From Gammaproteobacteria bacterium (lineage in GTDB: Bacteria > Pseudomonadota > Gammaproteobacteria > Burkholderiales > SG8-39), in the NCBI GenBank assembly GCA_041496705.1, contig JBGQFD010000004.1, positions 6,321 to 70,320 of the forward strand: a stretch of DNA of 64,000 nucleotides, read 5' to 3'. Shown here in pieces: positions 5,468 to 32,356 of the stretch; the stretch's first letter is position 1, and every line of letters starts with the position of its first letter. The translations under genes and the position numbers were made by a program. A model generated the notes under the pieces. It searched no databases, had not been told where the DNA came from, and saw only the letters and a list, made by a program, of their open reading frames with translations.

Positions 5468-5499
5468 TTTTCCGCATTCGCTGATTCGAGGATCGAACC

Positions 5500-6774
5500 A
5501 TGTTGACCCAGGGACAGAACGACCAATTGACCCGCACCGATCGCGGCACGCTGATGGGCGATCTGTTCCGCCGTTACTGGATTCCCGCCCTGCACAGCTG
5601 GGAACTCGCCGAACCCGACAGCGATCCGGTGCGCGTTCAGCTGCTCGGCGAGAAGCTCGTAGCCTTCCGCGACACCCGGGGTCGCGTCGGCGTCATCGAC
5701 GAGTTCTGCGCGCACCGCGGCGTGTCGCTGTGGTTCGGCCGCAACGAGGACTGCGGGCTGCGCTGCCCGTACCACGGCTGGAAATACGACGTGAACGGGC
5801 AGTGCACGGACCTTCCTTCGGAGCTGGGCATGGCGGCCAACATCAAGCTGAAGTCGTACCCGGTGATCGAGCGGGGCGACGTGGTCTGGATCTACATGGG
5901 GCCGCCGGAGCTGCAGCCTGCGCCGCCGGAGCTCGAATGGGCGATGGTTTCCTCGGGGAAGCGCTTCGTGTCCAAGCGCGTGCAGGAGTGCAACTACCTG
6001 CAGGCGATCGAGGGTGGCATCGATTCCAGTCACGTGTCCTTCCTGCACTCGGGTGAACTCAACACCGATCCGCTGTTCAAGGGCAGCCGCGCCAACCAGT
6101 ACAATCTCGACGACCGCATGCCGGTGTTCGAAGTGGTGGATTTCGAAGGCGGCCTGCTGATCGGCGCACGGCGCAACGCCGACAAGGGGCGCTACTATTG
6201 GCGCATCACGCCCTGGATCATGCCCTGGTACACCATCATCGCGCCGCGCGCGGGCCATCCCATCGGCGCGCACGCCTGGGTGCCGATCGACGACGAGAAC
6301 TGCTGGGCCTGGAGCATCAACTACCACCCGAGCCGCGCGCTGTCGGCCACCGAGGTGAGCGCGATGAAGGACGGCGCCGGCATCCACGTTAAATACATCC
6401 CTGGCACCTTCATTCCGCTGGCGAACAAGTCGAACAACTACCTCATCGACCGCTCGGCGCAAAAGCTCGGCCGCTCGTACAGCGGCGTGGAAGGTATCGC
6501 CATGCAAGACGCATCGCTGCAGGAATCGATGGGCCCTATCCAGGACCGCACGCGCGAGCACCTGTGCCTCACCGACAAGGGCATCGTCGGCATGCGCAGC
6601 CGCCTGCTACGCGCCGCCAAGGCCGCGCGCGAGGGCAAGAGCGTGCCGGGGCTGGAGCCCGCCTCGCAGCGCGTGCGCTCGTGCGCGATCGAGCTGCCGG
6701 TCGGCGAGCACTACAAGGACGGCGCGAAACACGGCCTGTTCCCGGCGCTCGATTCCGAGCCGGTGACCGTCTAG
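5500..6774 (+). CDS. Rieske [2Fe-2S] aromatic ring-hydroxylating oxygenase, phthalate-family single-subunit type
   Basis: Rieske ligand pairs CAHRG...CPYHGWKYD. N-terminus LMGDLFRRYWIPAL...DPVRVQLLGEKLVAFRD is typical of phthalate 4,5-dioxygenase/VanA-like oxygenases. GAGGA RBS before ATG 5500. Confidence 0.88.
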   Translation: MLTQGQNDQLTRTDRGTLMGDLFRRYWIPALHSWELAEPDSDPVRVQLLGEKLVAFRDTRGRVGVIDEFCAHRGVSLWFGRNEDCGLRCPYHGWKYDVNGQCTDLPSELGMAANIKLKSYPVIERGDVVWIYMGPPELQPAPPELEWAMVSSGKRFVSKRVQECNYLQAIEGGIDSSHVSFLHSGELNTDPLFKGSRANQYNLDDRMPVFEVVDFEGGLLIGARRNADKGRYYWRITPWIMPWYTIIAPRAGHPIGAHAWVPIDDENCWAWSINYHPSRALSATEVSAMKDGAGIHVKYIPGTFIPLANKSNNYLIDRSAQKLGRSYSGVEGIAMQDASLQESMGPIQDRTREHLCLTDKGIVGMRSRLLRAAKAAREGKSVPGLEPASQRVRSCAIELPVGEHYKDGAKHGLFPALDSEPVTV

Positions 6775-6844
6775 GACGCAGCGAGGCGACGTGAGCGACC
6801 GGGCCCTGCGTGCCCCGGGGCGCTCCGTATCGCGGTGACGTTTC

Positions 6845-7837
6845 ATGCCGAAGCTCAGCCTCTCCCTCGCCTGCTGGGACTACGACCGCACCCGCGCGCT
6901 CGCGGATGGAAGCGTACGGCCCGAGGGCATCGAGGTCAACTACCAGAATCTCTTCGTCGAAGAGACCTTCTTCCGCATGCTGCGCAACCGCGAGTTCGAC
7001 GCGGCGGAGATGTCGCTGTCCTCGTACTGCGTGTCGCTGATGCGCGACGAGCCCGCCTTCATCGCCATCCCGGTGTTTCCCTCGCGTTTCTTCAGGCACT
7101 CGTGCATTTTCGTTTCGGCGAAGAGCGGCATCCGCGAGCCGAAAGACCTCGCCGGGAAGCGGATCGGCGTTCCCGAGTACCAGATGACCGCGCCGGTGTG
7201 GATCCGCGGCATCCTGCAGGACGAGTACGGCGTCGATCCGGCGAGCCCCGAGTACTGGTCTGGCGGCGAGGAGGAGCCCGGTCGCGACGAGAAGCTGAAG
7301 CTCGATCTGCCGGCGAAATTCAGGCTGAAGGCAATCGGCCCAGCGCAGACTCTCTCGCGCATGGTCGCGGCGGGCGAAATCGACGCCCTGCACACGGCGC
7401 GCGCGCCCTCGACGTTTTATTCGCAACCGACCGCAGTGAAGCGCCTGTTCGGGGATTTCGTCGAGGTGGAGAAAGCCTACTACCGCAAGACCAAGATCTT
7501 CCCCATCATGCATACGCTGGTGATCCGCCGCGAACTCTACGAGGCGAACCGCTGGATCGCCCAGTCGCTCTTCAAGGCGTTCGTGCAGGCGCAGCGCAGG
7601 ACCTACGACCACCTCAACACCACCATGGCAAACGCCACCATGCTCCCCTGGCAGGCGGCGCACGTCGAAGAGGCGCGCCGCGAGTTCGGCGAGGACTGGT
7701 GGCCTTACGGTGTCGCTCCCAACCGGCACGTGCTCGACACGTTCCTGCGCTATCACCACGAGCAGGGCCTGTCGAAGCGTAGACTGGGGGTCGAAGAACT
7801 GTTCGCGCCGGAGACGCGGGAGTCTTTCCGCGTCTGA
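6845..7837 (+). CDS. 4,5-dihydroxyphthalate decarboxylase (PhtD)-like protein, cytosolic periplasmic-binding-protein fold
   Basis: MPKLSLSLACWDYDRTRALADGSVRPEGIEVNYQNLFVEETFFRMLRNREFDAAEMSLSSY matches the PhtD-like family as recalled. No signal peptide. Confidence 0.75.
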   Translation: MPKLSLSLACWDYDRTRALADGSVRPEGIEVNYQNLFVEETFFRMLRNREFDAAEMSLSSYCVSLMRDEPAFIAIPVFPSRFFRHSCIFVSAKSGIREPKDLAGKRIGVPEYQMTAPVWIRGILQDEYGVDPASPEYWSGGEEEPGRDEKLKLDLPAKFRLKAIGPAQTLSRMVAAGEIDALHTARAPSTFYSQPTAVKRLFGDFVEVEKAYYRKTKIFPIMHTLVIRRELYEANRWIAQSLFKAFVQAQRRTYDHLNTTMANATMLPWQAAHVEEARREFGEDWWPYGVAPNRHVLDTFLRYHHEQGLSKRRLGVEELFAPETRESFRV

Positions 7838-7885
7838 CGCACGGCAATCTGCCGAATTCCGCCGGGATTTGAACGGGAGGGAAAA

Positions 7886-8329
7886 ATGAAACCCAAATGG
7901 GCAGACGGCCTCCGCCAGGACGTCGACGAGATTGCACACGCGCTCGGCAACGTGCTGGTCGATGCCTTTCACCTTCTTGCATTGTTCGCCATCGGAGCCG
8001 CGACGGTGTGGGCGGCGGTCGTGGCCTTCCTCGGCATGACGGCGAAGGGACACGCATCGATCGACGACATCCTGCTCCTATTCATTTACCTAGAGCTCGG
8101 TGCCATGGTCGGCATCTACTTCAAGACCAACCACATGCCCGTGCGCTTCCTCATCTACGTGGCGATGACCGCCCTGACGCGGCTGCTGATTTCGGACGTG
8201 CAGTCGCACCATGTGCCCGACATGGGCATCGTGCTGGTCGCGGGGGCGATCCTGCTGCTCGCGTTTGCAACGCTGGTGATCCGCTATGCGTCTTCCAAGT
8301 TTCCGTCGGCGCATTCGAGCGAGAAGTAA
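7886..8329 (+). CDS. PsiE (phosphate-starvation-inducible protein E) family membrane protein
   Basis: 147 aa, four hydrophobic segments, LLLFIYLELGAMVGIYFKTNHMPVRFLIYVAMTAL motif region. GGGAGGG RBS. Confidence 0.7.
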   Translation: MKPKWADGLRQDVDEIAHALGNVLVDAFHLLALFAIGAATVWAAVVAFLGMTAKGHASIDDILLLFIYLELGAMVGIYFKTNHMPVRFLIYVAMTALTRLLISDVQSHHVPDMGIVLVAGAILLLAFATLVIRYASSKFPSAHSSEK

Positions 8330-8339
8330 AGGAGGACAG

Positions 8340-9323
8340 GTGCCTTCGAACGAGCGCAGGAAATTTCTCGGCGCCGGCGCGGCGACCGCGATGATGGCCG
8401 CCGCTGGCAACGCGCTCGCGCAGCAGGCGCCGGCGCAGCGCGCCAAAGGCCCGCGCGTGTGGCTGGACCTCGACCAGAAGGAACTCGACGACGCCTACGA
8501 CCAGAGCGTCTACGCGCCGAACCAGCCGCAGGTCACCGGCCGCTACGCAACCAACAGCGAGGTGACGCGCTCGCGCCTGGGGGCGCCACGGCGTTTCGCC
8601 TACGGACCGGCGCCGGCCGAGGGGCTGGACGTCTTCGCGGCGAAGCGGCCGAATGCTCCGATCAACGTATTCGTGCACGGCGGCGCCTGGCGCGGCGGCC
8701 TGGCGAAAAACTACGCCTTCCTCGCGGAACTGTTCGTCAACGCGGGCGCGCACTTTGTCGTGCTCGACTTCGCCAGCGTCGCGGAGCTCGGCGGAAACCT
8801 GTTGCTGATGGCCGAGCAGGTGAGGCGCGCGGTTGCGTGGGTGCGGCGTCACGCCGCCGAGTTTGGCGGCGACGCGGAGCGGATCCATGTTTCCGGCCAC
8901 TCCTCGGGCGCGCATCTCGCGGGGACCGTGCTCCTGACCGACTGGAAGAAAGAATTCGATCTGTCGGCCGACACGCTCAAGGGGGCGCTGCTGTGCAGCG
9001 GCATGTACGACCTGAAGCCGGTGCGGCTTTCGGCGCGCAGTTCCTACGTCAAGTTCACCGACGCAATGGAAGACGCGCTGAGCACGCAGCGCCACCTCGC
9101 GCGGATCGGCTGCCCGGTGATCGTCGCGCACGGCACCCAGGAAACACCAGAGTTCCAGCGCCAGACACGCGACTTTGCCACAGCGCTCAAAGTCGCCGGG
9201 AAGCCCGTGCAGCTGCTCGTCGGGCAGGGCTACAACCATTTCGAGATGCTGGAGACGCTCGCCAGCCCCTATGGTCTGCTCGGCCGCGCGGTACTGGAGC
9301 AGATGAAACTTGTCCCGGCGTAG
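8340..9323 (+). CDS. Tat-exported alpha/beta hydrolase (esterase/arylformamidase-like)
   Basis: Start moved to GTG 8340, just after AAGGAGGA. Twin-arginine signal ERRKFLGAGAATAMM. Oxyanion VFVHGGAWRGG and nucleophile elbow GHSSGAH. Confidence 0.8.
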   Translation: MPSNERRKFLGAGAATAMMAAAGNALAQQAPAQRAKGPRVWLDLDQKELDDAYDQSVYAPNQPQVTGRYATNSEVTRSRLGAPRRFAYGPAPAEGLDVFAAKRPNAPINVFVHGGAWRGGLAKNYAFLAELFVNAGAHFVVLDFASVAELGGNLLLMAEQVRRAVAWVRRHAAEFGGDAERIHVSGHSSGAHLAGTVLLTDWKKEFDLSADTLKGALLCSGMYDLKPVRLSARSSYVKFTDAMEDALSTQRHLARIGCPVIVAHGTQETPEFQRQTRDFATALKVAGKPVQLLVGQGYNHFEMLETLASPYGLLGRAVLEQMKLVPA

Positions 9324-9616
9324 AAGCACCACTGCCGCATAGCTTTGCCGCCAGCGTCACGCCGACCGTGCTGGCGGCTAATCCGGCTCGCGGCCTGTTC
9401 GTGATCGGGGTCAACGGCACGGTGCAGGTGTATACGCAGATGTCCGCCTACCAGATTGCGCTGCAGGCCGATCTGTTCGCAGGCCGCAAGGCGCGGAGCT
9501 TCGTCGCGACCGGTGGTACTTATGCCGACGGCACCAAGACCTTGACTTCGAGTGTCATGGCGACGGTGTTGCAGTAAGAGCCCAGGCGGGGCACGAGTCT
9601 CGCTCGAACCCGCCGT

Positions 9617-10723
9617 CTACTCCCAGGGCATCAGGGAGGCGTGGATCACGTCCGGCACGCCCTTGCCCCCCACCGAGCGGATGGCGAGGTCGACGTCCTT
9701 CAGCCCGAAGCGGTGCGTGGTCACTTTCTCCAGTGGGAAACGCTTAGAGGCGAGCTGAGCCAGGGCGAGCTCGCACGCCTTGTAGCTGTGCCCGCGCGCG
9801 CTCTTCATGGTGATGAATTTCACCGTGACTTTCTCGAGCGGGAAATTCGGGAACTCCTTCATTTCCCCCTGGACCACGATGGTTCCGCCCTTGCGCTTGA
9901 GCGCTTCGACGCCCAGCAGGATCGGCAGGGTCCCGGCGCCGGCAGTGCAGTCGAGCGCGACGTCGACGCCTTTGCCGCCCGTGATCTCCCGGATGCGCGC
10001 GAGGGGGTCCTCCTTCTGCACGTCGATCACATGGTCGGCGCCGAGTTCCTTGGCGACCTTCATCCGCGCGGCGTCCTTTGAAGTGCCGGTGACGATGATG
10101 AGCGAAGCGCCGGCCTGCTTGCAGATCACCGTCTGCGACAAGCCCTGCTGGCCCGGCCCTTGGATGAGCACCGTCGAGTTATAGCCGACCCCGCCGTCGA
10201 AGAGCGACCATTCGACGCCGTTCGCCATGGGGGTGACCAGGCCCGCAAGTTCCGCGCTTACTCCCGCGGGGGCCCGGTGCACGACCGCGTTCCAGGGAAG
10301 ATAGACGTACTGGGCGAACCCGCCCCACAGGTGCGGCGCCTTTTCCGCCGAGGTGTAGCCGTAGCGGACGCCGTCGGGGTTGTTGCGCCAGTCGGTGTTC
10401 TCGCAGTGCCGGTACTGGCCGAGGTGGCACCACTCGCACTTGCCGCACATGACGTAGTGCTCGACGAAGACGAGGTCGCCTTCCTTGAAACCTTTCCGCC
10501 GGGTGAACTCGCGGCCGGCTTTCGCGATCACCCCGATGTTCTCGTGGCCCATGATCACCGGGCTCAGCGTCGGCGGGTGCGCGTAGAGCTTGACGTCGGT
10601 GCCGCAGATCCCGGCGACCTCCATCTTCATGAGGGCACTGTCCTCCGGGATCTCGGGCATCGGGTATTCGCGGATCTCGGTTCGGCTCGGGCCGGTCCGC
10701 ACTGCCGCCAGCACTTTTTCCAC
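9617..10723 (-). CDS. Zinc-dependent medium-chain alcohol dehydrogenase family protein
   Basis: GICGTD...GHENIGV...CGKCEWCHLGQYRHCEN zinc ligand patterns and GPGQQG Rossmann. Start set to GTG 10723 behind GGAGGA; the longer 417-aa ORF has an implausible N-terminus. Confidence 0.85.
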   Translation of the reverse strand: MEKVLAAVRTGPSRTEIREYPMPEIPEDSALMKMEVAGICGTDVKLYAHPPTLSPVIMGHENIGVIAKAGREFTRRKGFKEGDLVFVEHYVMCGKCEWCHLGQYRHCENTDWRNNPDGVRYGYTSAEKAPHLWGGFAQYVYLPWNAVVHRAPAGVSAELAGLVTPMANGVEWSLFDGGVGYNSTVLIQGPGQQGLSQTVICKQAGASLIIVTGTSKDAARMKVAKELGADHVIDVQKEDPLARIREITGGKGVDVALDCTAGAGTLPILLGVEALKRKGGTIVVQGEMKEFPNFPLEKVTVKFITMKSARGHSYKACELALAQLASKRFPLEKVTTHRFGLKDVDLAIRSVGGKGVPDVIHASLMPWE

Positions 10724-10885
10724 CTGCGTTCCTCCAGTCACGGCTCTCGCCGGGCATTTTCTCATGCATTGGGGAGCGATTCTTGCGGTTCGCGCAGCTC
10801 GCGTACACCCGGGACGGGCCGAAGCGGGCCCTTGCCAGGCCGGGTGGGGGCTGCAGTAGAATTTCCCCAAAATTCCGGATCAACA

Positions 10886-18540: not shown

Positions 18541-18837
18541 ATGTTGCGTCCCTTGGAAAGAAGCCCCGAACGTGTCGAGGCCGTCGAGAGCCTGACGCGC
18601 TGGACCCGCGACAGGTTCAAGCTCGAAGGCGATGCATCGATCTCGGTAGCGGAGATCGCCTGTCCGCTGCCGGGCTGTCCGCCGCTGGAGACCGTCGTGA
18701 CGTTCTGGATCGGGGAACGGCGCCACCAGTTCAGGGTGTTCAAGCCGGTGGAAGGGGTAGCGATCGAAGACCTTCCCTACGCTTGGCTCAGGGAAGCGCT
18801 CGCGGTCGACGAGGGGCTCGACTACGACTGCTGCTGA
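18541..18837 (+). CDS. Hypothetical small Cys-containing protein (98 aa)
   Basis: MLRPLERSPERVEAVESLTRWTRDRFKLEGDASISVAEIACPLPGCPPLETVV...DYDCC. Coding-like codon bias, weak RBS, no family recognised. Confidence 0.5.
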   Translation: MLRPLERSPERVEAVESLTRWTRDRFKLEGDASISVAEIACPLPGCPPLETVVTFWIGERRHQFRVFKPVEGVAIEDLPYAWLREALAVDEGLDYDCC

Positions 18838-19659: not shown

Positions 19660-20607
19660 ATGGCAGAGCCCAAGCTGAAAACCGTCACCCGCACGCAGGG
19701 CAACAACCAGGCGCTGAAGGACGGCAGCGTCAAGCCGCGCGGCTTCGTGTTCGACTTCGAGGAGGTGAACCCGCTGATCGATGCGTTTCGCCGCATGGTG
19801 CGGGGCCTGGAGTTCGACGTCTGCGAAATGGCGCTCACCACCTACATCTGCGCTCGCGCCCACGGCAAGCGCATGACCGCGCTACCCATTTTTCTGGTAC
19901 GCGCGTTTCACCACGGCGCCGTCCTGATCAATACGAAAGCCGGCATCAGGAGCCCCAAGGACCTGGAAGAAAAGAAAGTCGGCGTCAATCGTGGGTACAC
20001 CGTCACCACCGGCCTGTGGGCGCGCAGCGTATTGCAGCACCAGTACGGCGTGGACTTGAAGAAAATCACCTGGGTACTCTCGGGCGACGAGCACGTGGCC
20101 GAGTACCGGCCGCCCTCGAACGTCGTGCCCGTCGAGAAAGGCAAGAAGATGGCGGACCTGCTGGCGTCGGGCGAGTTGGTCGCCGCCATCGGTATCGAGA
20201 TGGAGCACCCGGACGTTAAGCCGCTCATTGCCAATGCCAAGGAGGCGGGATTCGAGGCCCTGCACCGGCTCGGCCACTACCCGATCAATCACACGGTGGT
20301 GGTGAAAGACGATCTGCTCGCCGAGCGTCCGGGCCTGGCGCCGGACATCTTCAACGCCTTCGCCGAGGCGAAGCGTCTCTACCTCGAGCGGCTCAAGGCC
20401 GGCACGATCGCGAATCCGACGCCGGTCGACGAGGTGCACCGCCGGGTGATGGAGATCACGGGCAAGGACCCCTTGCCCTACGGTATCGCGCCCAACCGCA
20501 AGACCCTCGACGAGGTCATCGAGTCCGCGCTCGAGCAGGCGATCATCACGCACCCGGTCGCGGTGGAGGATCTCTTCGCGCGAAACACGCGCGGCCTGGT
20601 CGGGTGA
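19660..20607 (+). CDS. PhtD-like/NMT1-fold cytosolic protein, paralogue 3
   Basis: Start set to ATG 19660 (MAEPKLKTVTRTQGNNQALKDGSVKPRGFVFDFEEVNPLIDAFRRMVRGLEFDVCEMALTTY...). Same architecture as 6845 and 13745. No signal peptide. Confidence 0.7.
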   Translation: MAEPKLKTVTRTQGNNQALKDGSVKPRGFVFDFEEVNPLIDAFRRMVRGLEFDVCEMALTTYICARAHGKRMTALPIFLVRAFHHGAVLINTKAGIRSPKDLEEKKVGVNRGYTVTTGLWARSVLQHQYGVDLKKITWVLSGDEHVAEYRPPSNVVPVEKGKKMADLLASGELVAAIGIEMEHPDVKPLIANAKEAGFEALHRLGHYPINHTVVVKDDLLAERPGLAPDIFNAFAEAKRLYLERLKAGTIANPTPVDEVHRRVMEITGKDPLPYGIAPNRKTLDEVIESALEQAIITHPVAVEDLFARNTRGLVG

Positions 20608-20683
20608 CAGGCCCGCCGTTGACAGCCCGGCAAGGGAAGCGGAACATCGCCGGCGATTCGCACCGCATCCAGGAGGAAGCATC

Positions 20684-21595
20684 ATGACCGTCAAGGAAAG
20701 GACGAAACCCCAGGTCGCGACCATGAACGCGGTGCACGACCTGCCGGTGCTGGTCGCCCGCGACAAGGGCTTCTTCAAGGACGAGGGCCTGGACCTCAAG
20801 TTCGTGACCACGCCGGGGATGGCCCAGGTCACGACTTCCCACTTCGTCAAGTTCGATTCCGTCTTCGACCGCCCGCTCGACTCGGTCTACAACGAGGGCG
20901 GCATCGACCAGTACCGCATGTGCGAATGGGGCATCATGAAGCGCGCCGTCGAGGCCAACACGCAGGGGCTGCGCGGGCGCAAGATCGTGGCGCTGGGCGC
21001 CTCGATGTCGAAGTTCGCCATCGTCGTCGCGCACGACTCGAAGATCTACGAGCCCGAGATGCTCAAGGACAAGCCGATCGCGGTGACGCCGAACAACGGC
21101 TCGGACTTCACTACGCTGAAGATGATGGAAGGCTTCCTCGCGCCCGAGCACATCAAGAGGACACACGCGGGATCGATGCTCAAGCGGCTCGAGGCCGTGC
21201 GCGAGGGCAAGGTCGCGGCGGCGAGCGTCATGGAGCCCTGGATAAGCGTGGCGCAGAAATGGGGTCTGCGCATCCTGATCGAGTCGCACTCGACGCGCAG
21301 CGAGGCGGCCGGCGACGACCTCGACGGCCCGACGCTCGCGAAAATGTTCCGCGCGCAGGCGCGGGCGGTCGAGCTCATCGAAAAAGATCCAGCGCCTTTC
21401 ATCCACTATTTCATCCGCGAGACCGCGGGGCTCCTCGAGCCGCACGAGTTCCAGACCTGGCGCCTGCTTCATGCAGCGCCGCAACCCTACACGCGCGAGC
21501 GTTTCGACGACACCTACAACTGGACGGTGAAGTGGAACATGACGGTGCCGGGGGCCACTTACGAGAACACCGTCGACAACCGCGCCTGGAACTGA
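20684..21595 (+). CDS. NMT1/THI5-like (SsuA-fold) protein without signal peptide, tandem copy A
   Basis: AGGAGGAAG RBS. MNAVHDLPVLVARDKGFFKDEGLDLKFV... is the typical NMT1/SsuA-type fold opening. 303 aa, ends PGATYENTVDNRAWN. Confidence 0.72.
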   Translation: MTVKERTKPQVATMNAVHDLPVLVARDKGFFKDEGLDLKFVTTPGMAQVTTSHFVKFDSVFDRPLDSVYNEGGIDQYRMCEWGIMKRAVEANTQGLRGRKIVALGASMSKFAIVVAHDSKIYEPEMLKDKPIAVTPNNGSDFTTLKMMEGFLAPEHIKRTHAGSMLKRLEAVREGKVAAASVMEPWISVAQKWGLRILIESHSTRSEAAGDDLDGPTLAKMFRAQARAVELIEKDPAPFIHYFIRETAGLLEPHEFQTWRLLHAAPQPYTRERFDDTYNWTVKWNMTVPGATYENTVDNRAWN

Positions 21596-21610
21596 CTGGA
21601 GGAGCCTGCA

Positions 21611-22522
21611 ATGACCGCATCATTGAGAAAAGTGAAGGCATCGATGATGAACGCCATCCACGACCTGCCCCTGCTCGTTGCTCGCGACGAAGGTTTCTTC
21701 AGGGACCAGGGGCTTGACGTGGAGATCATCAAGACGCCGGGCTCGGGCCAGCGGGACTCGGACCACCAGGCGCTGCGCCCCAATGTTTTCGACCGCACCA
21801 TGGAGGCCCTGTACGACCAGGGCGCGTGCGACCAGTTCCGCATGTGCGAGTGGGGTGTGATGAAGCGGGCGGTCGAGTCGAACGTGACCTCGGGCCACCG
21901 CCCCGCGAAGATCGTCGCCCTGGGCGCCGCGATGTCGACCTTTGCGATTGTCACCGATCCCAAGTCCGGCATCTACGAGCCCGAGCAGCTGAAGGGGAAG
22001 CCGATCGGCGTGAGTCCCTACAACGGCTCGCATTTCACCACCCTGAAGCTGCTGGAAGGCTTCCTCGAGCGCGACCAGATCAACACCACTTTCGCCGGAA
22101 CGATGAAGGAGCGCATGGAAGCGGTGAGCAAGGGCGAAGTCGCGGCCGTCAGCCTGATGGAGCCCTGGATCAGCGTCGCGGAGAAGCGGGGTTTGCGCGT
22201 TCTCATGGAGTCGCACTCGACCCGCAGCGAGGCCGCCGGCGACGAACTCGACGGCCCGACGCTGGCGAAGATGTTCAGGGCCGAGGCCGAGGCCTCCAGG
22301 GCGATCGAGAAGAATCCGGAGCGTTACGCGCGCTACCTGGTCGAAGAGGCCGGAGGCCTGCTCGAGCTGAAGGACCTCAAGCTCTCGCGGATCCTGAACG
22401 CGCCGCCCGAGCCGTATACCCGCGATCGCTTCGAGCACACCTACCAGTGGACGCTGGGCTGGGAACTGGTTCCGCCGGGCGCGACCTACGAGAACACGGT
22501 GGACAATCGCGCCTGGAACTAG
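21611..22522 (+). CDS. NMT1/THI5-like protein without signal peptide, tandem copy B
   Basis: 15-nt gap after copy A and GGAGGA RBS. Identical length (303 aa), collinear with copy A, same C-terminal PGATYENTVDNRAWN. Confidence 0.72.
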   Translation: MTASLRKVKASMMNAIHDLPLLVARDEGFFRDQGLDVEIIKTPGSGQRDSDHQALRPNVFDRTMEALYDQGACDQFRMCEWGVMKRAVESNVTSGHRPAKIVALGAAMSTFAIVTDPKSGIYEPEQLKGKPIGVSPYNGSHFTTLKLLEGFLERDQINTTFAGTMKERMEAVSKGEVAAVSLMEPWISVAEKRGLRVLMESHSTRSEAAGDELDGPTLAKMFRAEAEASRAIEKNPERYARYLVEEAGGLLELKDLKLSRILNAPPEPYTRDRFEHTYQWTLGWELVPPGATYENTVDNRAWN

Positions 22523-23373
22523 GTCCGCTGCTTGTCCAGAAACTGCAGCAAGCGCGCCGGAGCCGTCGCCTCCGTCTGAGCCTCGGGAAGAACGTCCCAG
22601 TACTCCGAGCGCGGCAGGCATTCCTCGAGATACCTCGCCGCCGAAGTCGCGTGCGATTCGTCGTGGCCCGGAATGACGAGCGTCGGGATGTCGAGGCGCA
22701 GCAGGTCCTCGGGCCTTGCGCCAGGTGCGGTGTCGCGGTCGAGGAGATTGCGGCACATGGCGGCGACGACGAGCTGGTATTGCTCCAGGTTCTGCGCGGC
22801 ATAGGATGCGGCGAACGCGGCGTCATGGCGTATCACCGAGGCCCAGGGACCGCCGCGGGGGTCGGCGCCGAAGGCCTTGCCTTCTTTCCGCGCCAGCGCG
22901 ACGACCTGCTCGAGACCGTGCGCGCGCACGTAGTCCAGGTGCTCGGCGAAGCGCTGGTGCCCCTTGATGCGGTACTTCGCCCCGCCCACGGGCCACCACA
23001 GGATCATGCTCAGCGTCGCCTCCGGGTAAGCGACCGCGAAAGCCGTCACCGGACAGCAGCCCATGCAGCCGCCCATCAGGTGCGCGCTGCGAATCTCGAG
23101 GTGCTCGAGCAGGCCCCGCCCTTGAGCCACGTAGTGGGCCCAGGTCATGGCCTCCACCCGGCCGCCCGACTGCCCGCACTCGCGCCGGTCGAAGACGATG
23201 CAGGTGTACTTCTTGGTCAGGTGATCGAGCAGCTTGATTCGGGCGTACACGCCCTGCGTGGTCCATTTGTCCAGGGTCGCGTCGAACCCGGCGGGCGAAT
23301 ACATGAGCAAGGGCGGACCGTTTCCAATCACCTCGTAGCGGGTGCTGATGCGGTCGATGACAGCAGTGGGCAT
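22519..23373 (-). CDS. Alpha/beta hydrolase with Cys in the nucleophile-elbow position
   Basis: Start set to ATG 23373 (MPTAVIDRISTRYEVIGNGPPLLMYSP...). FDRRECGQSGG...HLMGGCMGC occupies the place of the usual GxSxG. Its start is 1 nt from the stop of the upstream gene. Confidence 0.78.
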   Translation of the reverse strand: MPTAVIDRISTRYEVIGNGPPLLMYSPAGFDATLDKWTTQGVYARIKLLDHLTKKYTCIVFDRRECGQSGGRVEAMTWAHYVAQGRGLLEHLEIRSAHLMGGCMGCCPVTAFAVAYPEATLSMILWWPVGGAKYRIKGHQRFAEHLDYVRAHGLEQVVALARKEGKAFGADPRGGPWASVIRHDAAFAASYAAQNLEQYQLVVAAMCRNLLDRDTAPGARPEDLLRLDIPTLVIPGHDESHATSAARYLEECLPRSEYWDVLPEAQTEATAPARLLQFLDKQRT

Positions 23374-23374
23374 A

Positions 23375-24112
23375 TCAGCCGCCTCTGATCTGCCGGCCCG
23401 AACGCACGTCATCGATCAGGGCGTGGAAGGCATCGAGGGCGAGCTTCGCGGTATTGCCGTAAGTCTCGGTCTCGGCGTCGATCCACTTCGCCGCATAGCC
23501 GATCGCGGTATGCGCCAGGCGCACGCGTCCGTCGAGCCATGGCCCGCCGCCCAGGCCCCCGATCACCGGAATGGAAACCGCGCGTGCGACGGCCAGACCG
23601 GCCACGGGACCCGAGTGTCTGAAGTCCAGAACCGAAGCGCCCGCATCCTCCAGTCGCTTTGCTTCCGCCACGAGTTTGTCGACAGGAAGGTTCTCGCCAT
23701 GAAACTCGGCAAAGACCGGGACGCCTGCCCGAACGATGGCTATCACCATGCCGGGATCGCCCATGACCTTCACCATGTCGGCGCCGCCCTCCTTTGCCAG
23801 GCGCACGGCCGCACCGACCGCGGTCTTGGTGCCCGCTTGCACCGGACCATTGGGCAGGTCGCAACTCACCAGGGCGCGCTTCGCACCGCGGCGCACGGCC
23901 TTGCAGCAGATCAGCATTTCATCCACCGTGACTTCGCTGTCCGGCGCGTACCCCCAGAGATTCACGCCGACGGAATCGCCCACCGAAATAAGGTCCATAC
24001 CGGCGCGGTCGGCGATTCTCGCCATCTCGGTGTCCCAGGCGACCACGCCGACGATCTTGCGTCCGTCGCGCTTCATCTTCTGAAGCGCGTGAATCGTAAC
24101 CTTGGTTTGCAT
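23375..24112 (-). CDS. PanB-like (3-methyl-2-oxobutanoate hydroxymethyltransferase family) protein
   Basis: KIVGVVAWDTEMARIADRAGMDLISVGDSVGVNLWGY...VTVDEMLICCKAVRRG follows the PanB N-terminal pattern (K..MLTAYD...A..AG.D..LVGDSLGM...G...T..VT.D.M..H..AV.RG). Confidence 0.7.
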   Translation of the reverse strand: MQTKVTIHALQKMKRDGRKIVGVVAWDTEMARIADRAGMDLISVGDSVGVNLWGYAPDSEVTVDEMLICCKAVRRGAKRALVSCDLPNGPVQAGTKTAVGAAVRLAKEGGADMVKVMGDPGMVIAIVRAGVPVFAEFHGENLPVDKLVAEAKRLEDAGASVLDFRHSGPVAGLAVARAVSIPVIGGLGGGPWLDGRVRLAHTAIGYAAKWIDAETETYGNTAKLALDAFHALIDDVRSGRQIRGG

Positions 24113-24119
24113 TTCCTTC

Positions 24120-25118
24120 TTACGCCGGCGAAGCGCCGGCGAGCCGCTTGATCGCCGAGATCATCGCGCCCGGATCGGCGCGGTTCTTCCCTGCGATGTC
24201 GAGCGCGCTGCCGTGCGCGACCGAGGAGAATAGCACCGGCGTGCCGAGCGTGAGCGCCGCGGTGCCAGCGAAAGCGTGCGTTTTCGCCATGATGTGTCCC
24301 TGGTCGTGGACCATCACGACGAAGGCGTCGTAACCTTTCTTCAGGAACATCGTGTCCGCGCCGAACGGTCCTTCGGCCGCGACGCCGTTCTTCTTTGCGT
24401 CCGAAATGGCCGGGCCGATGATTTCCCGTTCCTCTTCGCCGAAGAGGCCGCCTTCGCCGGCGTGCGGGTTCAGGCCCGACACGGCGATGCGCGGCGAGGC
24501 GAGGCCCATGCGCCGCAACGCCGAATCAGTCGAGCGGATCGCGTTCAGCACGCGACTGCGCGTGACGAGTTCGATCGCGCGGCGCAGGCTCAGGTGCAGG
24601 GTCGCATGCGCGACGCGCATTTCCGTTCCGCCGTGATCGAAGCAGATCATGAGGAAGGCGTCGTTTGGCGGCACGCCCGTGCAGCGCGCGACGAAGGTCG
24701 GATAGCCGTCGAACTCGATTCCCGCGAGTTTGATCGAACTTTCGGTCTGCGGCGCGGCGACCACCGCGTCGACTTCGCCGGCGAGCGCCGCGTCGATTGC
24801 CGCCTTCGCCGAATCGAGCGCGGCTTCGCCGTGCGGCGCGGCGATCGATCCGATGTGCAGTTCTCCCGGCTGGAACTGCTTGCGCTCGATCAGCGTGACT
24901 GCGCCGTCGCTCCAGCTCGCGTGTGCGGCGCTCGCAACCGCATTGAATTTCGGCGCGAGGCCGCAGGCGGCGGCGTGTGTTTCCAGCGCGCCGCGGTCGC
25001 CGACCAGCAGTGGACGGCAGATCCTGTTTACCTGGGGGTCGAGCGCGGCCCTGAGCGCGATCTCCGGTCCAATGCCTGCCGGGTCGCCGATGGCGATGGC
25101 GATGCGCGGAAGAGACAT
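24120..25118 (-). CDS. PdxA-family NAD-dependent dehydrogenase (TphB-like context)
   Basis: MSLPRIAIAIGDPAGIGPEI... and ...GLNPHAGEGGLFG.EE... are PdxA hallmarks. The start abuts the stop of the Bug gene. Confidence 0.85.
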   Translation of the reverse strand: MSLPRIAIAIGDPAGIGPEIALRAALDPQVNRICRPLLVGDRGALETHAAACGLAPKFNAVASAAHASWSDGAVTLIERKQFQPGELHIGSIAAPHGEAALDSAKAAIDAALAGEVDAVVAAPQTESSIKLAGIEFDGYPTFVARCTGVPPNDAFLMICFDHGGTEMRVAHATLHLSLRRAIELVTRSRVLNAIRSTDSALRRMGLASPRIAVSGLNPHAGEGGLFGEEEREIIGPAISDAKKNGVAAEGPFGADTMFLKKGYDAFVVMVHDQGHIMAKTHAFAGTAALTLGTPVLFSSVAHGSALDIAGKNRADPGAMISAIKRLAGASPA

Positions 25119-26075
25119 CTATTCGGTTTTAACGCCGGCGGAACGGATCACTTCGAGCCAGCGCGTGGCGTCCAGCTTCATGAACGCCGCCATCTGCGCC
25201 GGCGAATAGCCGAGCGGCTCGGCGGAGAGCTCGCCCAAGCGCCTCAGAACGTCGGGCAGTTTCAGCGCCTCGGCGATCGCGGCGGAAAGTTTCTCCGCGA
25301 TAGGCGCGGGCGTCTTCGGCGGGGCGACCACGCCGAACCAGGCGATCGCCACGAACCCGGGCAGCAGTTCGGACAATGCCGGCACGTCGGGAAGCGCCGC
25401 GATCCTCTTTTCACTGCAGACGGCGAGCGCCTTCAGCTTGCCGCTCTTCACGTGCTGCAGCGACACGCCGAGGTTGTCGAACATGATGTCCACCTGCCCG
25501 CCGAGCAGGTCGGTGAGCGCCGGTGCCGTGCCCTTGTAGGGAATGTGCGTGATCTGCAGCTTGCCCGCCATGGACTTGAACATCTCCGCTGCGAGGTGCG
25601 AGGTCGAGCCGCTGCCCTGCGAGGCGTAGTTGAGCCGCCCCGGCGCCGCTCTGGCGAAGGTGATCAGTTCCTGCACGCTGCTTGCGCCCACGCCCGGGTT
25701 CACCAGCAGCACGTTGGGGATCGCCGCCATCACGCTCACCGGCACGAACTGCGCCGGGTCGAAGGCGAGTTTTGCGTAGAGACTCTGGTTGATCACCAGC
25801 GGCGGCGGCGGCGCCGAGAGCAGCAGGTAGCCGTCGGGTTCGGCTTTGTAGACGAACTCCGCGCCGATGTTTCCCGCGGCGCCCGGCCGGTTCTCGACCA
25901 CGACGGGTTGTCCCCACTTCGCCGCGAGCTTCTCGCCGACGATGCGCGGGATGAGATCGGCGCTGCCGCCCGCCGGAAAGGGCACGACGATGCGGATCGC
26001 TCTGCCCGGGTAGTCCTGGGCCTGCGCGGTGACGGTGAACGCAAAAATACATGCGGAGAGCAGTCTGGCGATCAT
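25119..26075 (-). CDS. Bug/TctC-family substrate-binding receptor (TphC-like context)
   Basis: Signal MIARLLSACIFAFTVTAQA, then YPGRAIRIVVPFPAGGSADLIPR. Confidence 0.88.
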   Translation of the reverse strand: MIARLLSACIFAFTVTAQAQDYPGRAIRIVVPFPAGGSADLIPRIVGEKLAAKWGQPVVVENRPGAAGNIGAEFVYKAEPDGYLLLSAPPPPLVINQSLYAKLAFDPAQFVPVSVMAAIPNVLLVNPGVGASSVQELITFARAAPGRLNYASQGSGSTSHLAAEMFKSMAGKLQITHIPYKGTAPALTDLLGGQVDIMFDNLGVSLQHVKSGKLKALAVCSEKRIAALPDVPALSELLPGFVAIAWFGVVAPPKTPAPIAEKLSAAIAEALKLPDVLRRLGELSAEPLGYSPAQMAAFMKLDATRWLEVIRSAGVKTE

Positions 26076-26157
26076 CTGCGTGCCTCGACGTTCGGTCCTG
26101 CCGTATTTTACCGGTGTAGAATCGCTGCAAACGAAAATTCCATTGCAAATCCACCCA

Positions 26158-27393
26158 ATGTCTTCAGTCTTGGAATCGCGTGTCTGGCCGGCCGAAGGCC
26201 TGACCCGCGTTCCCTACTGGATATACCAGGACGAGAGCATCTACCAGCGCGAGCAGGAGCGCATCTATCGCGGCGACGCCTGGAATTTCCTCGGGCTCGA
26301 CGCCGAGCTGCCGGAGCCCGGCGACTTCAAGACGACTTTCGCGGGCGAGATGCCGGTGGTGGTGACCCGCGACGAATCGGGCGCAATCCGCTGCTTCGAG
26401 AACCGCTGCGCGCACCGCGGTGCGCTCCTTTGCCTCGCGGACCGCGGCAACGCCAAAGAGATCGCCTGCGTCTATCACAACTGGACCTACGATCTGCGCG
26501 GCAACCTCACCGCGGTCGCGTTCCGCCGCGGCGTAGGGGGCAAGGGCGGCATGCTTCTCGATGCCGAGCCGGAGAGCCAGGCACCGCAGAAATTCCGCGT
26601 CGAGACCTTCTGCGGCCTGATGTTCGCGACGCTCTCCGACAAGACGCCGCCGGTCGAGCGCTACATCGGCCCCGAGGTCGCAGGGCGCATCCGTCGCGTG
26701 ATGAAGGAACCCGTGAAGATCCTCGGCGGCTATACCCAGGTGCTGCAGAGCAACTGGAAGCTCTATTTCGAGAACGTGAAGGACACCTACCACGCGAGCC
26801 TCCTGCACCTTTTTTTCTCGACCTTCCGCCTGAATCGCCTCGAGCAGAAGGGCGGGGTGATCGTCGGTGGCGAGGGCGGCAGCCACGTCAGCTACACCAT
26901 GATGCGCTCGAACCAGACCGGCGACGAGTACGAAAAGGCCGGCATGCGCTCGGCGAGCGGCGGCTACGCGCTGCAGGCGCCGCAGATGCTCGAGTCGGTC
27001 GACGAGATCGGCGACGGCGTCACGCTGCAGATCCTCACCGTGTTCCCGGGATTCGTGCTGCAGCAGATCATGAACTCGCTTGCCGTGCGCCAGGTGCTGC
27101 CGAAAGGCGTGGGCCGCACCGAGCTCGTGTGGACCTGCTTCGGCTACGCGTCGGACGACGCGAAGATGCAGGAACTGCGCATGAAGCAGTCGAACCTCGT
27201 CGGCCCCGCGGGCTACATCTCGCTCGAGGACGGTGCCGCGACCGGGTTCGTCCAGCGCGGCGTGGCGGGCGCCGCGGCGCGCGCCTCGGTCGTGGAAATG
27301 GGCGGGCGCGAAGTTGCCTCGAACGAATCGCGCGTCACCGAGACCTCTGTCCGCGGGCTATGGCAGCAGTACCGCAAGCACATGGGCCTCTGA
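26158..27393 (+). CDS. Rieske ring-hydroxylating dioxygenase large (alpha) subunit, terephthalate dioxygenase TphA2 / salicylate 5-hydroxylase-like
   Basis: Start set to ATG 26158. CAHRGALLC...CVYHNWTYD Rieske pairs. NWKLYFENVKDTYHASLLHLFFSTFRLNRLEQKGGVIV and VFPGFVLQQIMNSLAVRQ match TphA2 as I recall it. Confidence 0.85.
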   Translation: MSSVLESRVWPAEGLTRVPYWIYQDESIYQREQERIYRGDAWNFLGLDAELPEPGDFKTTFAGEMPVVVTRDESGAIRCFENRCAHRGALLCLADRGNAKEIACVYHNWTYDLRGNLTAVAFRRGVGGKGGMLLDAEPESQAPQKFRVETFCGLMFATLSDKTPPVERYIGPEVAGRIRRVMKEPVKILGGYTQVLQSNWKLYFENVKDTYHASLLHLFFSTFRLNRLEQKGGVIVGGEGGSHVSYTMMRSNQTGDEYEKAGMRSASGGYALQAPQMLESVDEIGDGVTLQILTVFPGFVLQQIMNSLAVRQVLPKGVGRTELVWTCFGYASDDAKMQELRMKQSNLVGPAGYISLEDGAATGFVQRGVAGAAARASVVEMGGREVASNESRVTETSVRGLWQQYRKHMGL

Positions 27394-27397
27394 GCGG

Positions 27398-27874
27398 ATG
27401 GACGCCGCGCTGCAGCTCGCGGTGGAGAACCTCCTCGCGCGCTACGTCCACGCCATCGACGACGACCGGCTGGAGAACTGGCCCGGCTTCTTCACCGAGA
27501 ACGGCCGCTACCGCATCACCACCGCGGAGAACCACGAGCGCGGCCTGCCGCTGTCCATCATCTACGCCGATTCGCGCGCGATGCTCGCCGACCGCGTCTC
27601 GGCGCTGCGGCATGCCAACATCTACGAGGCGCAGCGCTACCGGCACACCGTGTCGTCCACACTCGTAGAGCGGGTGGATGCCGATACCGCGCGCGCGACT
27701 TCGAACTTCCAGGTCGTGCGCATCATGCACACGGGGGAGTCGATACTTTTTGCGAGCGGGCGGTACCTTGATCGAATTCTCCTGAAGGGCGAAGGTGGGG
27801 AGACGATGTTCGAGGAGAGGGTCGTTGTGCTCGACAGCCGCGCGATTGATACGCTGCTGGCGATTCCGATCTAA
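27398..27874 (+). CDS. Ring-hydroxylating dioxygenase small (beta) subunit (NTF2-like)
   Basis: ATG 27398 lies 4 nt after the alpha stop. LLARYVHAIDDDRLENWPGFFTENGRYRI...YEAQRYRHTVS is the typical beta-subunit pattern. Confidence 0.85.
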   Translation: MDAALQLAVENLLARYVHAIDDDRLENWPGFFTENGRYRITTAENHERGLPLSIIYADSRAMLADRVSALRHANIYEAQRYRHTVSSTLVERVDADTARATSNFQVVRIMHTGESILFASGRYLDRILLKGEGGETMFEERVVVLDSRAIDTLLAIPI

Positions 27875-31480: not shown

Positions 31481-32356
31481 TTACATCCCGCACGCTGCAA
31501 ACACACCTACGCTCAATCTACCGTTCGCCGCAACTTCCCACCAATTCCCGTCCAGATCACTGAACGTAAACGACGTCTGTGTATCCCGCTGCCTTACTTC
31601 CTCCAGCGCGGTGATTCCCGCAGCCTTGCCCGCGGCCGCAAACTCCCGGTGCGCTTCCAGCACTTCCGCCGCCGAAGCGACGGTCAGGGTGAACCGGTTC
31701 ATCGCAGACAAGAACTTCCGCCGTTTGGGAATGGGCAGGACGACGATGTACCACGGCGTGGCAGGGTGCTTGATGTAGGAGGAGATCCTGCCGCCGCCGA
31801 CGATCTGCAATCCCAGCGCGTCGCGGTAGAACCGGACGCTCGCTTCCTTGTCGTCGCATTCCAGGGTCCCGTGGGTGAGTGCCTGGGGAATGTAGCCGCG
31901 TCCTGGAAAATCACTTTCAGACAATAGACGGTCCCAATGCGGCGCGGCGATGGAGCGCCCTTCGGCCGCGGCGCGGGGATCGTAGTACTCGATCTCCAGG
32001 GTGTTGCCGCCCGGCTCGCCCAGATAAATCGACCGCGCGAAATGGGTCGAATGCGGCTTCATCAGCCGCTTGATCCCGTACCTCTCCCGGTTCGCGTCGA
32101 TGTACGCGAAGGCCGCCTCCACTTCCTCGGGGTTCGCCACGCGGACGCCGTAATGGTTGTTGTGCGGTTTGTCGGGCGCGTCCGGCCCGCCTTCGTGGAC
32201 GACGAGTTGCCACGCAGTGTTCGGATGCCGCAGGACGGCGCAGCCGTCGCTGCGCTCGACGACCTGCATAGCCAAGAGGTCGGTGAGCACGGGAAGCGTC
32301 TCGTCCAGGGCCCGGCATTCGTAGTGGCCGTGGGTCAGGCCGACGGGTTTCAGCAT
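31481..32356 (-). CDS. Two-domain VOC (glyoxalase/bleomycin resistance/extradiol dioxygenase) superfamily protein
   Basis: Duplicated beta-alpha-beta-beta-beta modules: LTHGHYECRALDETLPVLTDLL... and LTHGTLECDDKEASVRFYRDALGL... Confidence 0.72.
   Translation of the reverse strand: MLKPVGLTHGHYECRALDETLPVLTDLLAMQVVERSDGCAVLRHPNTAWQLVVHEGGPDAPDKPHNNHYGVRVANPEEVEAAFAYIDANRERYGIKRLMKPHSTHFARSIYLGEPGGNTLEIEYYDPRAAAEGRSIAAPHWDRLLSESDFPGRGYIPQALTHGTLECDDKEASVRFYRDALGLQIVGGGRISSYIKHPATPWYIVVLPIPKRRKFLSAMNRFTLTVASAAEVLEAHREFAAAGKAAGITALEEVRQRDTQTSFTFSDLDGNWWEVAANGRLSVGVFAACGM

Follow-up and report, generated by a model that had tools for sequence, protein, structure and literature searches.

A putative terephthalate-type locus beside a probably older PanB-like and alpha/beta-fold protein pair in a Burkholderiales metagenome-assembled genome

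We examined a 64,000-nucleotide stretch of contig JBGQFD010000004.1 (assembly GCA_041496705.1, Gammaproteobacteria bacterium, order Burkholderiales; hereafter the window), concentrating on a divergent six-gene locus at positions 22519 to 27874 (Table 1). The locus encodes the alpha and beta subunits of a Rieske oxygenase in one direction and a Bug-type binding protein, a PdxA-like dehydrogenase, a PanB-like protein, and an alpha/beta-hydrolase-fold protein in the other. Our reading, to which we give a probability of roughly 0.55, is that it joins a terephthalate-type upper pathway (unit 1) to an older pair formed by the PanB-like and alpha/beta-fold proteins (unit 2), with both units serving the same broad pathway. 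Terephthalate dioxygenase systems have been studied for the upcycling of polyethylene terephthalate monomers, and the tph-like unit described here, as judged from its sequence, is a variant of the known tph system.

The window lies on contig C4 of a 3.6-Mb metagenome-assembled genome (MAG; 168 contigs, 86.5% complete) and has a G+C content of ∼65%. The named genomes nearest to this MAG are uncultured soil MAGs labeled “Betaproteobacteria/Burkholderiales bacterium.” Gene calls from an open reading frame (ORF) listing and from Pfam and NCBIfam profile scans reproduced all six genes, families, and coordinates of the original prediction, which had been made from the sequence alone, and the gene coordinates also yield its minus-strand gaps (0, 7, and 1 nt). 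The beta gene starts 4 nt past the alpha stop, and the start of the hydrolase-like gene at 23373 is backed by homologues, all of which open with MPTA. Chance juxtaposition does not explain the layout, since G363 and G435, both of the same genus, share it, as do at least 10 further metagenome or MAG contigs. Based on the 7-nt and 1-nt gaps and on a gene order conserved in at least 10 loci, we predict that the PdxA-like, PanB-like, and hydrolase-like genes are carried on one transcript.

Oxygenase, binding protein, and dehydrogenase resembling those of terephthalate pathways

The alpha subunit aligned with the solved alpha subunits of terephthalate dioxygenase (TPADO; 7vju and 7q04) over 401 residues with zero gaps (E ∼1e-157); the match to the salicylate 5-hydroxylase NagG gave an E value of 6e-93. 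In the TPADO structure, R309 and R390 form salt bridges, S243 and N224 contact the second carboxylate, I290 stacks on the ring, and H210, H215, and D356 are the iron ligands (PMC9060491). All five contacts are kept in the window alpha and in every copy of its clade, here called type B, and the iron ligands are aligned and kept in the window alpha and its type-B relatives. These matches support the TphA2-like assignment of the original prediction. The type-B alphas form a clade of their own (support, 99/99) that lies in a polytomy with the canonical TphA2 clades, and the window's beta subunit is 51% identical to Variovorax TphA3. In one relative with 72% identity (locus L046 of genome G410, positions 5960 to 7135), a MetE-like gene (Meth_synt_2) comes after alpha and beta, and the pairing with PdxA-like, PanB-like, and hydrolase-like genes is absent.

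The Bug protein has a signal peptide-like N terminus, and among solved structures it is closest to 8hka, a terephthalate-binding protein from Ideonella (3.5e-97), and to Comamonas TphC 7ndr (3.7e-88), with the next-ranked solved Bug protein at 1e-63. The published TphC pocket includes P86, Q150, T155, and T242 (PMC8556258). The window's Bug retains the pocket residues P86, Q150, S154, T155, S156, K177 to T179, and N197 and carries two substitutions, F194 to M and T242 to A; an Ala at position 242 occurs in tph-like operons, and T242 was rated as nonessential for TphC (PMC8556258). The lack of TctA/B membrane components had been listed as one of the features that do not fit a terephthalate pathway. 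No TctA match was indeed obtained on contig C4 in a search of the source genome, but this is no anomaly: it is ordinary because tpiA and tpiB lie outside the tph operon in the reference organism, as is the case for most Bug proteins (PMC8556258), and because at least five TctA genes are encoded on other contigs of the genome.

The original prediction further proposed a different substituted aromatic or alicyclic dicarboxylate as the substrate, and the alpha pocket gives no sign of one. Type-B and canonical TphA2 proteins differ at 18 clade-specific positions, none of which is a known contact residue and none of which adds a cationic residue; a residue that could bind a third carboxylate was sought in alpha, and none was found. 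As far as the alpha sequence can tell, there is no reason to leave terephthalate or a very close analogue. A rival reading, which we consider less likely than not, is that the oxygenase and the PdxA-like enzyme have another natural substrate, for example, a benzene tricarboxylate such as trimellitate, 2-hydroxyterephthalate, or 2,5-pyridinedicarboxylate. The product would require the PhtD-like and NMT1-like decarboxylase homologues nearby, and the pair would complete the route. The ∼23 kb around the locus hold three PhtD-like, two NMT1-fold, and two class-II-aldolase genes, two Rieske oxygenases, and two Bugs, and so many decarboxylase-like genes suggest aromatic polycarboxylates as substrates of this island. 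TPADO accepts 2-substituted terephthalates, and 2,5-pyridinedicarboxylate and 2-hydroxyterephthalate were among the seven ligands screened and docked with TphC (PMC8556258). Type-B alphas are frequent in soil metagenomes, where man-made terephthalate is unlikely to be the main substrate. Against this stand the absence of any clade-specific change at a known contact or of an added cationic residue for a third carboxylate, as well as a Bug pocket that is the TphC pocket.

The best solved matches of the PdxA-like protein are 8zj3, deposited as a 4-hydroxythreonine-4-phosphate dehydrogenase (4e-61), and the named TphB 4aty (3e-59), with PdxA2 2hi1 close behind (8e-57). Its top matches in a plasmid collection are dehydrogenases of tph/tpa clusters (40 to 41% identity). 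In a PdxA-family tree with limited taxon sampling, TphB/TpaC and the PdxA-like proteins of type-B loci and of clusters with a LigXa-type Rieske oxygenase form one superclade (100/100) against PdxA2 and housekeeping PdxA, and this superclade splits into three separate clades, namely, TphB, the type-B copies, and the LigXa-cluster copies. The latter two were grouped with support of 75/64, and a union of type B with TphB was not rejected (approximately unbiased test, p-AU = 0.145). The housekeeping PdxA of the source genome is encoded on contig C45. The window's PdxA-like protein is thus probably a decarboxylating cis-diol dehydrogenase related to TphB.

The retained alpha contacts, the retained TphC pocket, and the grouping of the PdxA-like protein with TphB bear out the earlier view of the Bug, alpha, beta, and PdxA-like genes as a terephthalate-like core. 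We consider it quite likely that the encoded proteins import a para-dicarboxylate and turn it into a catechol-type compound, with electrons and membrane transport provided from elsewhere. The locus shares with the tph operon of Comamonas sp. E6 (tphR / tphC-A2-A3-B-A1), whose layout is also found in Variovorax paradoxus, a TphC-type binder, a TphA2A3-type oxygenase with the full contact motif, a dehydrogenase of the PdxA family from the TphB superclade, and a membrane transporter encoded elsewhere. Versions of the tph/tpa layout without tphC are known from Burkholderia sp. RPE67, Pseudomonas veronii, and Rhodococcus jostii RHA1 (tpa). Unlike these operons, type-B loci lack TphA1 and IclR; the genes of the present locus are divided between two divergent units, with two additional genes in the operon, and compared with canonical clusters of the same bacterial family, the alpha subunit is only 55 to 58% and the dehydrogenase only 41 to 42% identical.

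The PanB-like and alpha/beta-fold proteins

The PanB-like protein falls below both NCBIfam cutoffs for PanB (149 versus 272 bits for NF001452 and 127.3 versus 207.55 for TIGR00222). Six pocket residues are strictly conserved in PanB, namely, D46, D84, K112, E114, H136, and E181 (PMC13488298). The window's protein retains the first three (as D46, D85, and K115) and has lost the equivalents of the others, which are replaced throughout the subfamily (E114 by M, H136 by E or Q, and E181 by R or T). In PanB, we take D46, D84, and K112 to be the ligands of Mg2+ and of the 2-oxo acid. The window's branch of the subfamily has also lost the GLTPQS loop. A structural model (predicted local distance difference test [pLDDT], 81) superimposes on PanB with a template modeling score of ∼0.8, and its next structural neighbors are oxaloacetate decarboxylase and methylisocitrate lyase.

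A whole-library search placed the protein in a small subfamily that grades into true PanB, and the plasmid collection contained no PanB-like relative, only true PanB at ≤39% identity. It thus shares with the solved PanBs (1m3u, 1oy0, and 1o66) the TIM-barrel fold and half of the pocket, and it differs from them in the replaced residues, the lost loop, the subthreshold scores, and its placement in catabolic clusters rather than with panC and panD. By these sequence features, we regard it as a PanB-derived TIM-barrel protein and not as a ketopantoate hydroxymethyltransferase.

The alpha/beta-fold protein gave a confident model (pLDDT, 90) whose top Foldseek matches are Est1, CumD, and PcaD. Seven residues, C58, C103, C106, C252, D238, H241, and Q266, are invariant in 25 homologues. 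The original prediction had called this protein a Cys-hydrolase. The Cys part of that name stands, as C103 occupies the nucleophile elbow (GGCMGC, within a CxxC motif), at the junction of strand 97-102 and helix 103-115 of the model and after strand 5. The hydrolase part is uncertain because the canonical catalytic His is absent: in a profile alignment to bromoperoxidase A2, D238 lies under the Asp of GDRT and the invariant Q266 under the His of APHG, which are presumably the catalytic Asp228 and His257 of that enzyme. No His occurs beyond residue 241, and so none follows the last core strand; H241 may be a relocated catalytic His.

In comparison with Est1 (6eb3), the meta-cleavage-product hydrolase CumD (1iup), and the enol-lactonase PcaD (2xua), the fold, the elbow geometry after strand 5, and the Asp after strand 7 are shared, and the Cys nucleophile in a CxxC motif, the invariant Gln in place of His, and the invariance of four Cys and H241 set the protein apart. 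Judged from these residues, it is no textbook hydrolase. We also considered it as a substitute for PcaD in a 3,4-cleavage route and set this aside, since the genus gives only a weak intradiol match but strong LigB-type matches.

Loss of function could be read into both proteins, given that the PanB-like protein has lost three of the six strictly conserved PanB residues and its partner has no catalytic His. We nevertheless regard noncatalytic or decaying remnants as very improbable. Both genes are intact and conserved over two proteobacterial classes (PanB-like, 59 to 88% identity; hydrolase-like, 64 to 81%, in the census of 80 loci described below), each protein has many invariant new positions (e.g., GGxGGGPWLDGR and the four Cys), and both models are confident. 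An intact, conserved, and confidently folded pair argues for purifying selection on a new function, and the strength of the conservation suggests that this function is real. The pair would then be a case of neofunctionalization in which a vitamin-biosynthesis fold, retaining three of the six pocket residues that PanB strictly conserves, is kept in at least 80 species together with a hydrolase-fold partner that has Cys and Gln in place of Ser and His.

Distribution and history of the pair

We compiled PanB-like relatives of at least 59% identity, using one genome per species, which yielded 80 genomes/loci. Nearly all are soil MAGs of Alpha- and Betaproteobacteria, from Burkholderiales, Xanthobacteraceae, Stellaceae, and Usitatibacter. 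Of the 77 loci with enough downstream sequence, 40 have the hydrolase-like gene as the immediate 3′ neighbor of the PanB-like gene. The flanks that we fetched most often contained u99, a 98-amino-acid ORF (41/80 loci), followed by a Zn-dehydrogenase (30/80; 74 to 93% identical to the window copy), a PdxA-like gene (25/80; 50 to 65% identity to the window copy outside type B), and a LigXa-type Rieske oxygenase (24/80). Within 10 kb, 20 of the 80 loci had the signal-less NMT1-fold protein NMT1_a (78 to 95% identity) and 19 had the PhtD-like decarboxylase homologue PhtD2 (67 to 77%); TphA2-type alpha subunits were present in 10. A Rieske ferredoxin was found in 16 of the 65 loci whose PanB-like gene was recovered by ORF calling, and a Rieske oxygenase was found in 22 of the 39 loci with full 10-kb flanks.

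In one typical layout, the order is PanB-like > hydrolase-like > Bug, < PhtD < LigXa < u99, > Zn-dehydrogenase > PdxA > Rieske ferredoxin; in another, it is Rieske ferredoxin > LigXa > PhtD-like > amidohydrolase-2 > x > PanB-like > hydrolase-like. A LigXa-type oxygenase precedes the pair in loci L058, L079 to L082, and L125. Elsewhere the pair occurs without tph genes, as in G251, where it lies beside NMT1 and DUF1080 genes, and in many Alphaproteobacteria. The original prediction described a terephthalate operon rewired with the two extra genes; the likely history is the reverse, as the pair appears to be older, is widespread, and normally accompanies LigXa-type clusters. The tph-like genes are therefore best seen as a likely lineage-specific addition beside it.

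Clusters with a LigXa-type (alpha-only) oxygenase and PhtD-like genes, of the kind known from phthalate-family catabolism, resemble the window in that LigXa, PhtD-like, and Zn-dehydrogenase genes occur here too. They differ from it in that the window's own pair-bearing operon has a TphA2A3-type oxygenase. In the literature that we searched, no characterized pathway had the pair together with the LigXa/PhtD/Zn-dehydrogenase/PdxA gene set, and searches for a pathway combining a PanB-like protein with a Rieske oxygenase and for details of iphA/iphB returned nothing usable. ESM Atlas look-ups gave generic family names only. A tentative interpretation, for which we would give less than even odds, is that the PanB-derived protein and the four-Cys alpha/beta-fold protein form a new two-protein enzyme, neither a hydroxymethyltransferase nor a classical hydrolase, for a step of aromatic-polycarboxylate degradation that has yet to be described. 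On this view, the pair would have come on at least two occasions to stand next to Rieske oxygenases that are unrelated to each other, of the LigXa type and of the TphA2A3 type. Pair copies of 70 to 88% identity were also seen in loci L067, L068, L079, L088, and L134, which were binned into Acidiferrales, Rugosimonospora, Streptomycetaceae, or Enterobacteriaceae MAGs; these are most likely misbinned proteobacterial contigs.

Electron donors and regulation

To our knowledge, every characterized terephthalate dioxygenase system carries its own reductase. A tblastn search gave no match to a TphA1-like reductase or an IclR regulator anywhere in the window, and across 17 type-B loci (the window and 16 related loci) neither was found, with the one exception of a reductase in G363 that is 28 to 32% identical to TphA1 and lies 13 kb off. 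The lack of an adjacent reductase, noted in the original prediction, is thus a property of the whole clade. Canonical clusters do occur in the same bacterial family, with IclR / C-A2-A3-B-A1 in G209, C-A2-A3-B-A1 in G434, and partial versions in G416 and G444. Unit 1 shares its C-A2-A3-B core with the canonical tph clusters of this family and with those on plasmids. Because long contigs from genus mates with completeness of ∼96% and ∼98% are among the 17 loci, the missing reductase is a clade trait and not an assembly gap, and the 86.5% completeness of the source MAG was rejected as its sole cause.

The genome search for a reductase that the original prediction had recommended turned up an orphan on contig C13 that is 40% identical to TphA1 and has the TphA1 domain order. 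It is surrounded by unrelated genes. A second candidate on contig C16 (33% identical to TphA1) lies near a Rieske-ferredoxin-like ORF, and both reductases are outside oxygenase operons. We regard both as candidates for a common electron supply to the genome's several Rieske oxygenases, and the C13 protein, by its domain order and identity, plausibly fills this role. Type-B oxygenases point to acceptance of a shared electron donor, and the abundance of the clade in soil, the fully kept pocket, and the absence of a dedicated reductase and IclR point to the turnover of natural para-dicarboxylates.

No regulator gene accompanies the cluster, and IclR was not found in the 17 type-B loci. When the divergent intergenic regions of seven type-B loci were aligned, a single block was conserved, ATTTTACCGGTG(C)TAGAATC, which could also be recognized by eye in L004. 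It consists of an extended −10-like TGnTAGAAT and an ACCGGT palindrome and lies 35 to 55 nt 5′ of alpha. This position was seen across the type-B loci compared, irrespective of which gene, Bug or PdxA, is opposite. The window copy is one base short (GGTG-TAGAAT). We read the element as a putative extended −10 promoter with a short palindrome. In one related MAG (L093), an insert of ∼2.4 kb splits the Bug-alpha intergenic region.

A possible pathway

We propose that the TphC-like protein would bind a planar para-dicarboxylate in the periplasm and pass it to membrane proteins of the TctA/B type, whose genes lie elsewhere. O2 would then be added by the TphA2A3-like oxygenase to the carbon that bears the carboxyl group and to the adjacent carbon, with electrons supplied in trans by a reductase, for which the Fer2-FAD-NAD protein on C13 is the best candidate. 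Oxidation of the resulting cis-diol by the PdxA-like enzyme would lead to loss of CO2 and to protocatechuate or a close analogue, and this product could feed the 4,5-cleavage route on contig C55, which has strong LigB-type matches. The pair would most likely act on a later intermediate of the same broad pathway, such as a 2-oxo acid or an enol-lactone, through a site for Mg2+ and a 2-oxo acid in the PanB-like protein and through Cys103 of its partner; in this genus the pair would have come under the transcript of the PdxA-like gene. Folds and families, conserved residues, and the recurring gene order are observed; we infer the substrate, the reductase source, the co-transcription, and the chemistry of the pair. 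Assigning Mg2+/2-oxo-acid chemistry and a Cys-dependent step specifically to the pair is speculative, and we hold it less likely than not to be correct. That units 1 and 2 share a pathway and not just a transcript is about an even bet.

Several observations weigh against this scheme. The type-B alphas are separate from every characterized TphA2, and the type-B PdxA-like proteins likewise form a separate clade (99/99) outside the TphB clade, with GDPAGIGPE where TphBs have GDPNGIGPE. An alpha paralogue of only 44% identity keeps I290, R309, and R390 and has conservative changes at the other two contacts (N224S and S243T); since this paralogue largely keeps the recognition motif, the motif is no proof of terephthalate specificity. 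The C13 reductase is also present in G251, a genome that lacks this oxygenase. G410 and G450 have type-B alpha and beta genes but not the pair, and the pair is mostly found without these genes; because each occurs apart from the other, their shared operon may be a historical accident. The chemistry proposed for the pair draws solely on its fold and retained residues.

Some of these points also fit a different explanation, that the two units are unrelated neighbors. Unit 1 would be a complete terephthalate-to-protocatechuate unit, the pair would serve some other pathway together with the NMT1-like protein and u99, and PdxA and Bug would have been inserted upstream. Five loci (L077, L078, L084, L086, and L088) have a stable core in which the PanB-like and hydrolase-like genes face NMT1_a and u99 with aroE beside them, and to which alpha/beta, Bug, and PdxA are variably added; in L086, alpha and beta face the pair directly, with neither PdxA nor Bug. 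The occurrence of alpha/beta without the pair in two genomes is also consistent with this explanation, as is L006, in which Bug, PdxA, and PanB-like genes occur without the hydrolase-like gene. However, the 7-nt and 1-nt gaps and an order conserved in at least 10 loci suggest one transcript. In many genomes, the pair is also directly behind, or ≤10 kb from, a second, unrelated type of Rieske oxygenase, and such placement would be puzzling if the pair had nothing to do with ring oxygenation. We therefore judge unrelated neighbors to be the less probable account and retain the reading of a terephthalate-type unit and an older pair in one broad pathway.

The surrounding catabolic island

The six-gene locus is the right-hand end of an island whose gene set spans ∼4.4 to 28 kb of the window, with its left part at 4448 to 10870 (Table 1). 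The two class-II-aldolase genes have 3,4-dihydroxyphthalate decarboxylase as their best named relative and score under the family cutoff. In other loci, u99 adjoins NMT1-fold or LigXa-type genes. The PhtD-like gene and both NMT1/THI5-fold genes at 19660 to 22522 converge on the hydrolase-like gene and are recurrent partners of the pair. The copies of the Zn-dehydrogenase and of the NMT1-fold protein at 20684 to 21595 in alphaproteobacterial loci are mostly ≥83% identical to those of the window, whereas the PanB-like, LigXa-type, and PdxA-like proteins of those loci are only 50 to 66% identical; the high values could reflect very strong constraint or recent transfer of these genes alone.

Two further links were considered and rejected. 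A formaldehyde connection, in which formaldehyde from O-demethylation by the LigXa-type oxygenase would be processed by the Zn-dehydrogenase (as a formaldehyde dehydrogenase) and the PanB-like protein, fails because the Zn-dehydrogenase is IolM/Tdh-like and scores only 70 bits against an FdhA cutoff of 637. A VOC protein at 31481 to 32356, examined as the missing extradiol step, is not conserved beside the cluster in relatives.

Table 1. Features of the window and candidate electron-transfer genes on other contigs of the source genome
Feature	Position	Strand	Basis or remark
Bug (second)	∼4562-5467		Pfam
LigXa-type Rieske oxygenase	5500-6774		Pfam
PhtD-like	6845-7837		Pfam
Esterase	8286-9323		Pfam
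Zn-dehydrogenase	9617-10870	-	Pfam
PhtD-like (another copy)	at 13745		
u99, 98-amino-acid ORF	18541-18837	+	No Pfam or NCBIfam family
PhtD-like decarboxylase homologue	19660-20607	+	Convergent on hydrolase-like gene
Signal-less NMT1/THI5-fold protein	20684-21595	+	Weak Pfam NMT1 match
Signal-less NMT1/THI5-fold protein	21611-22522	+	Weak Pfam NMT1 match
Alpha/beta-hydrolase-fold gene	22519-23373	-	Pfam Abhydrolase_1
PanB-like gene	23375-24112	-	Pfam Pantoate_transf, 1.2e-49
PdxA-like gene	24120-25118	-	Pfam PdxA, 1.3e-79
Bug gene	25119-26075	-	Pfam TctC, 4.6e-70
Promoter-like element	26102-26124	+	Conserved upstream of alpha
Rieske alpha gene	26158-27393	+	Pfam Rieske and Ring_hydroxyl_A
Rieske beta gene	27398-27874	+	Pfam Ring_hydroxyl_B/SnoaL_4
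Orphan reductase	C13:38740-39741		Fer2, FAD_binding_6, NAD_binding_1
Second Fer2-FNR reductase	C16:5516-6454		
Rieske-ferredoxin-like ORF	C16:8436-8702		Near the C16 reductase

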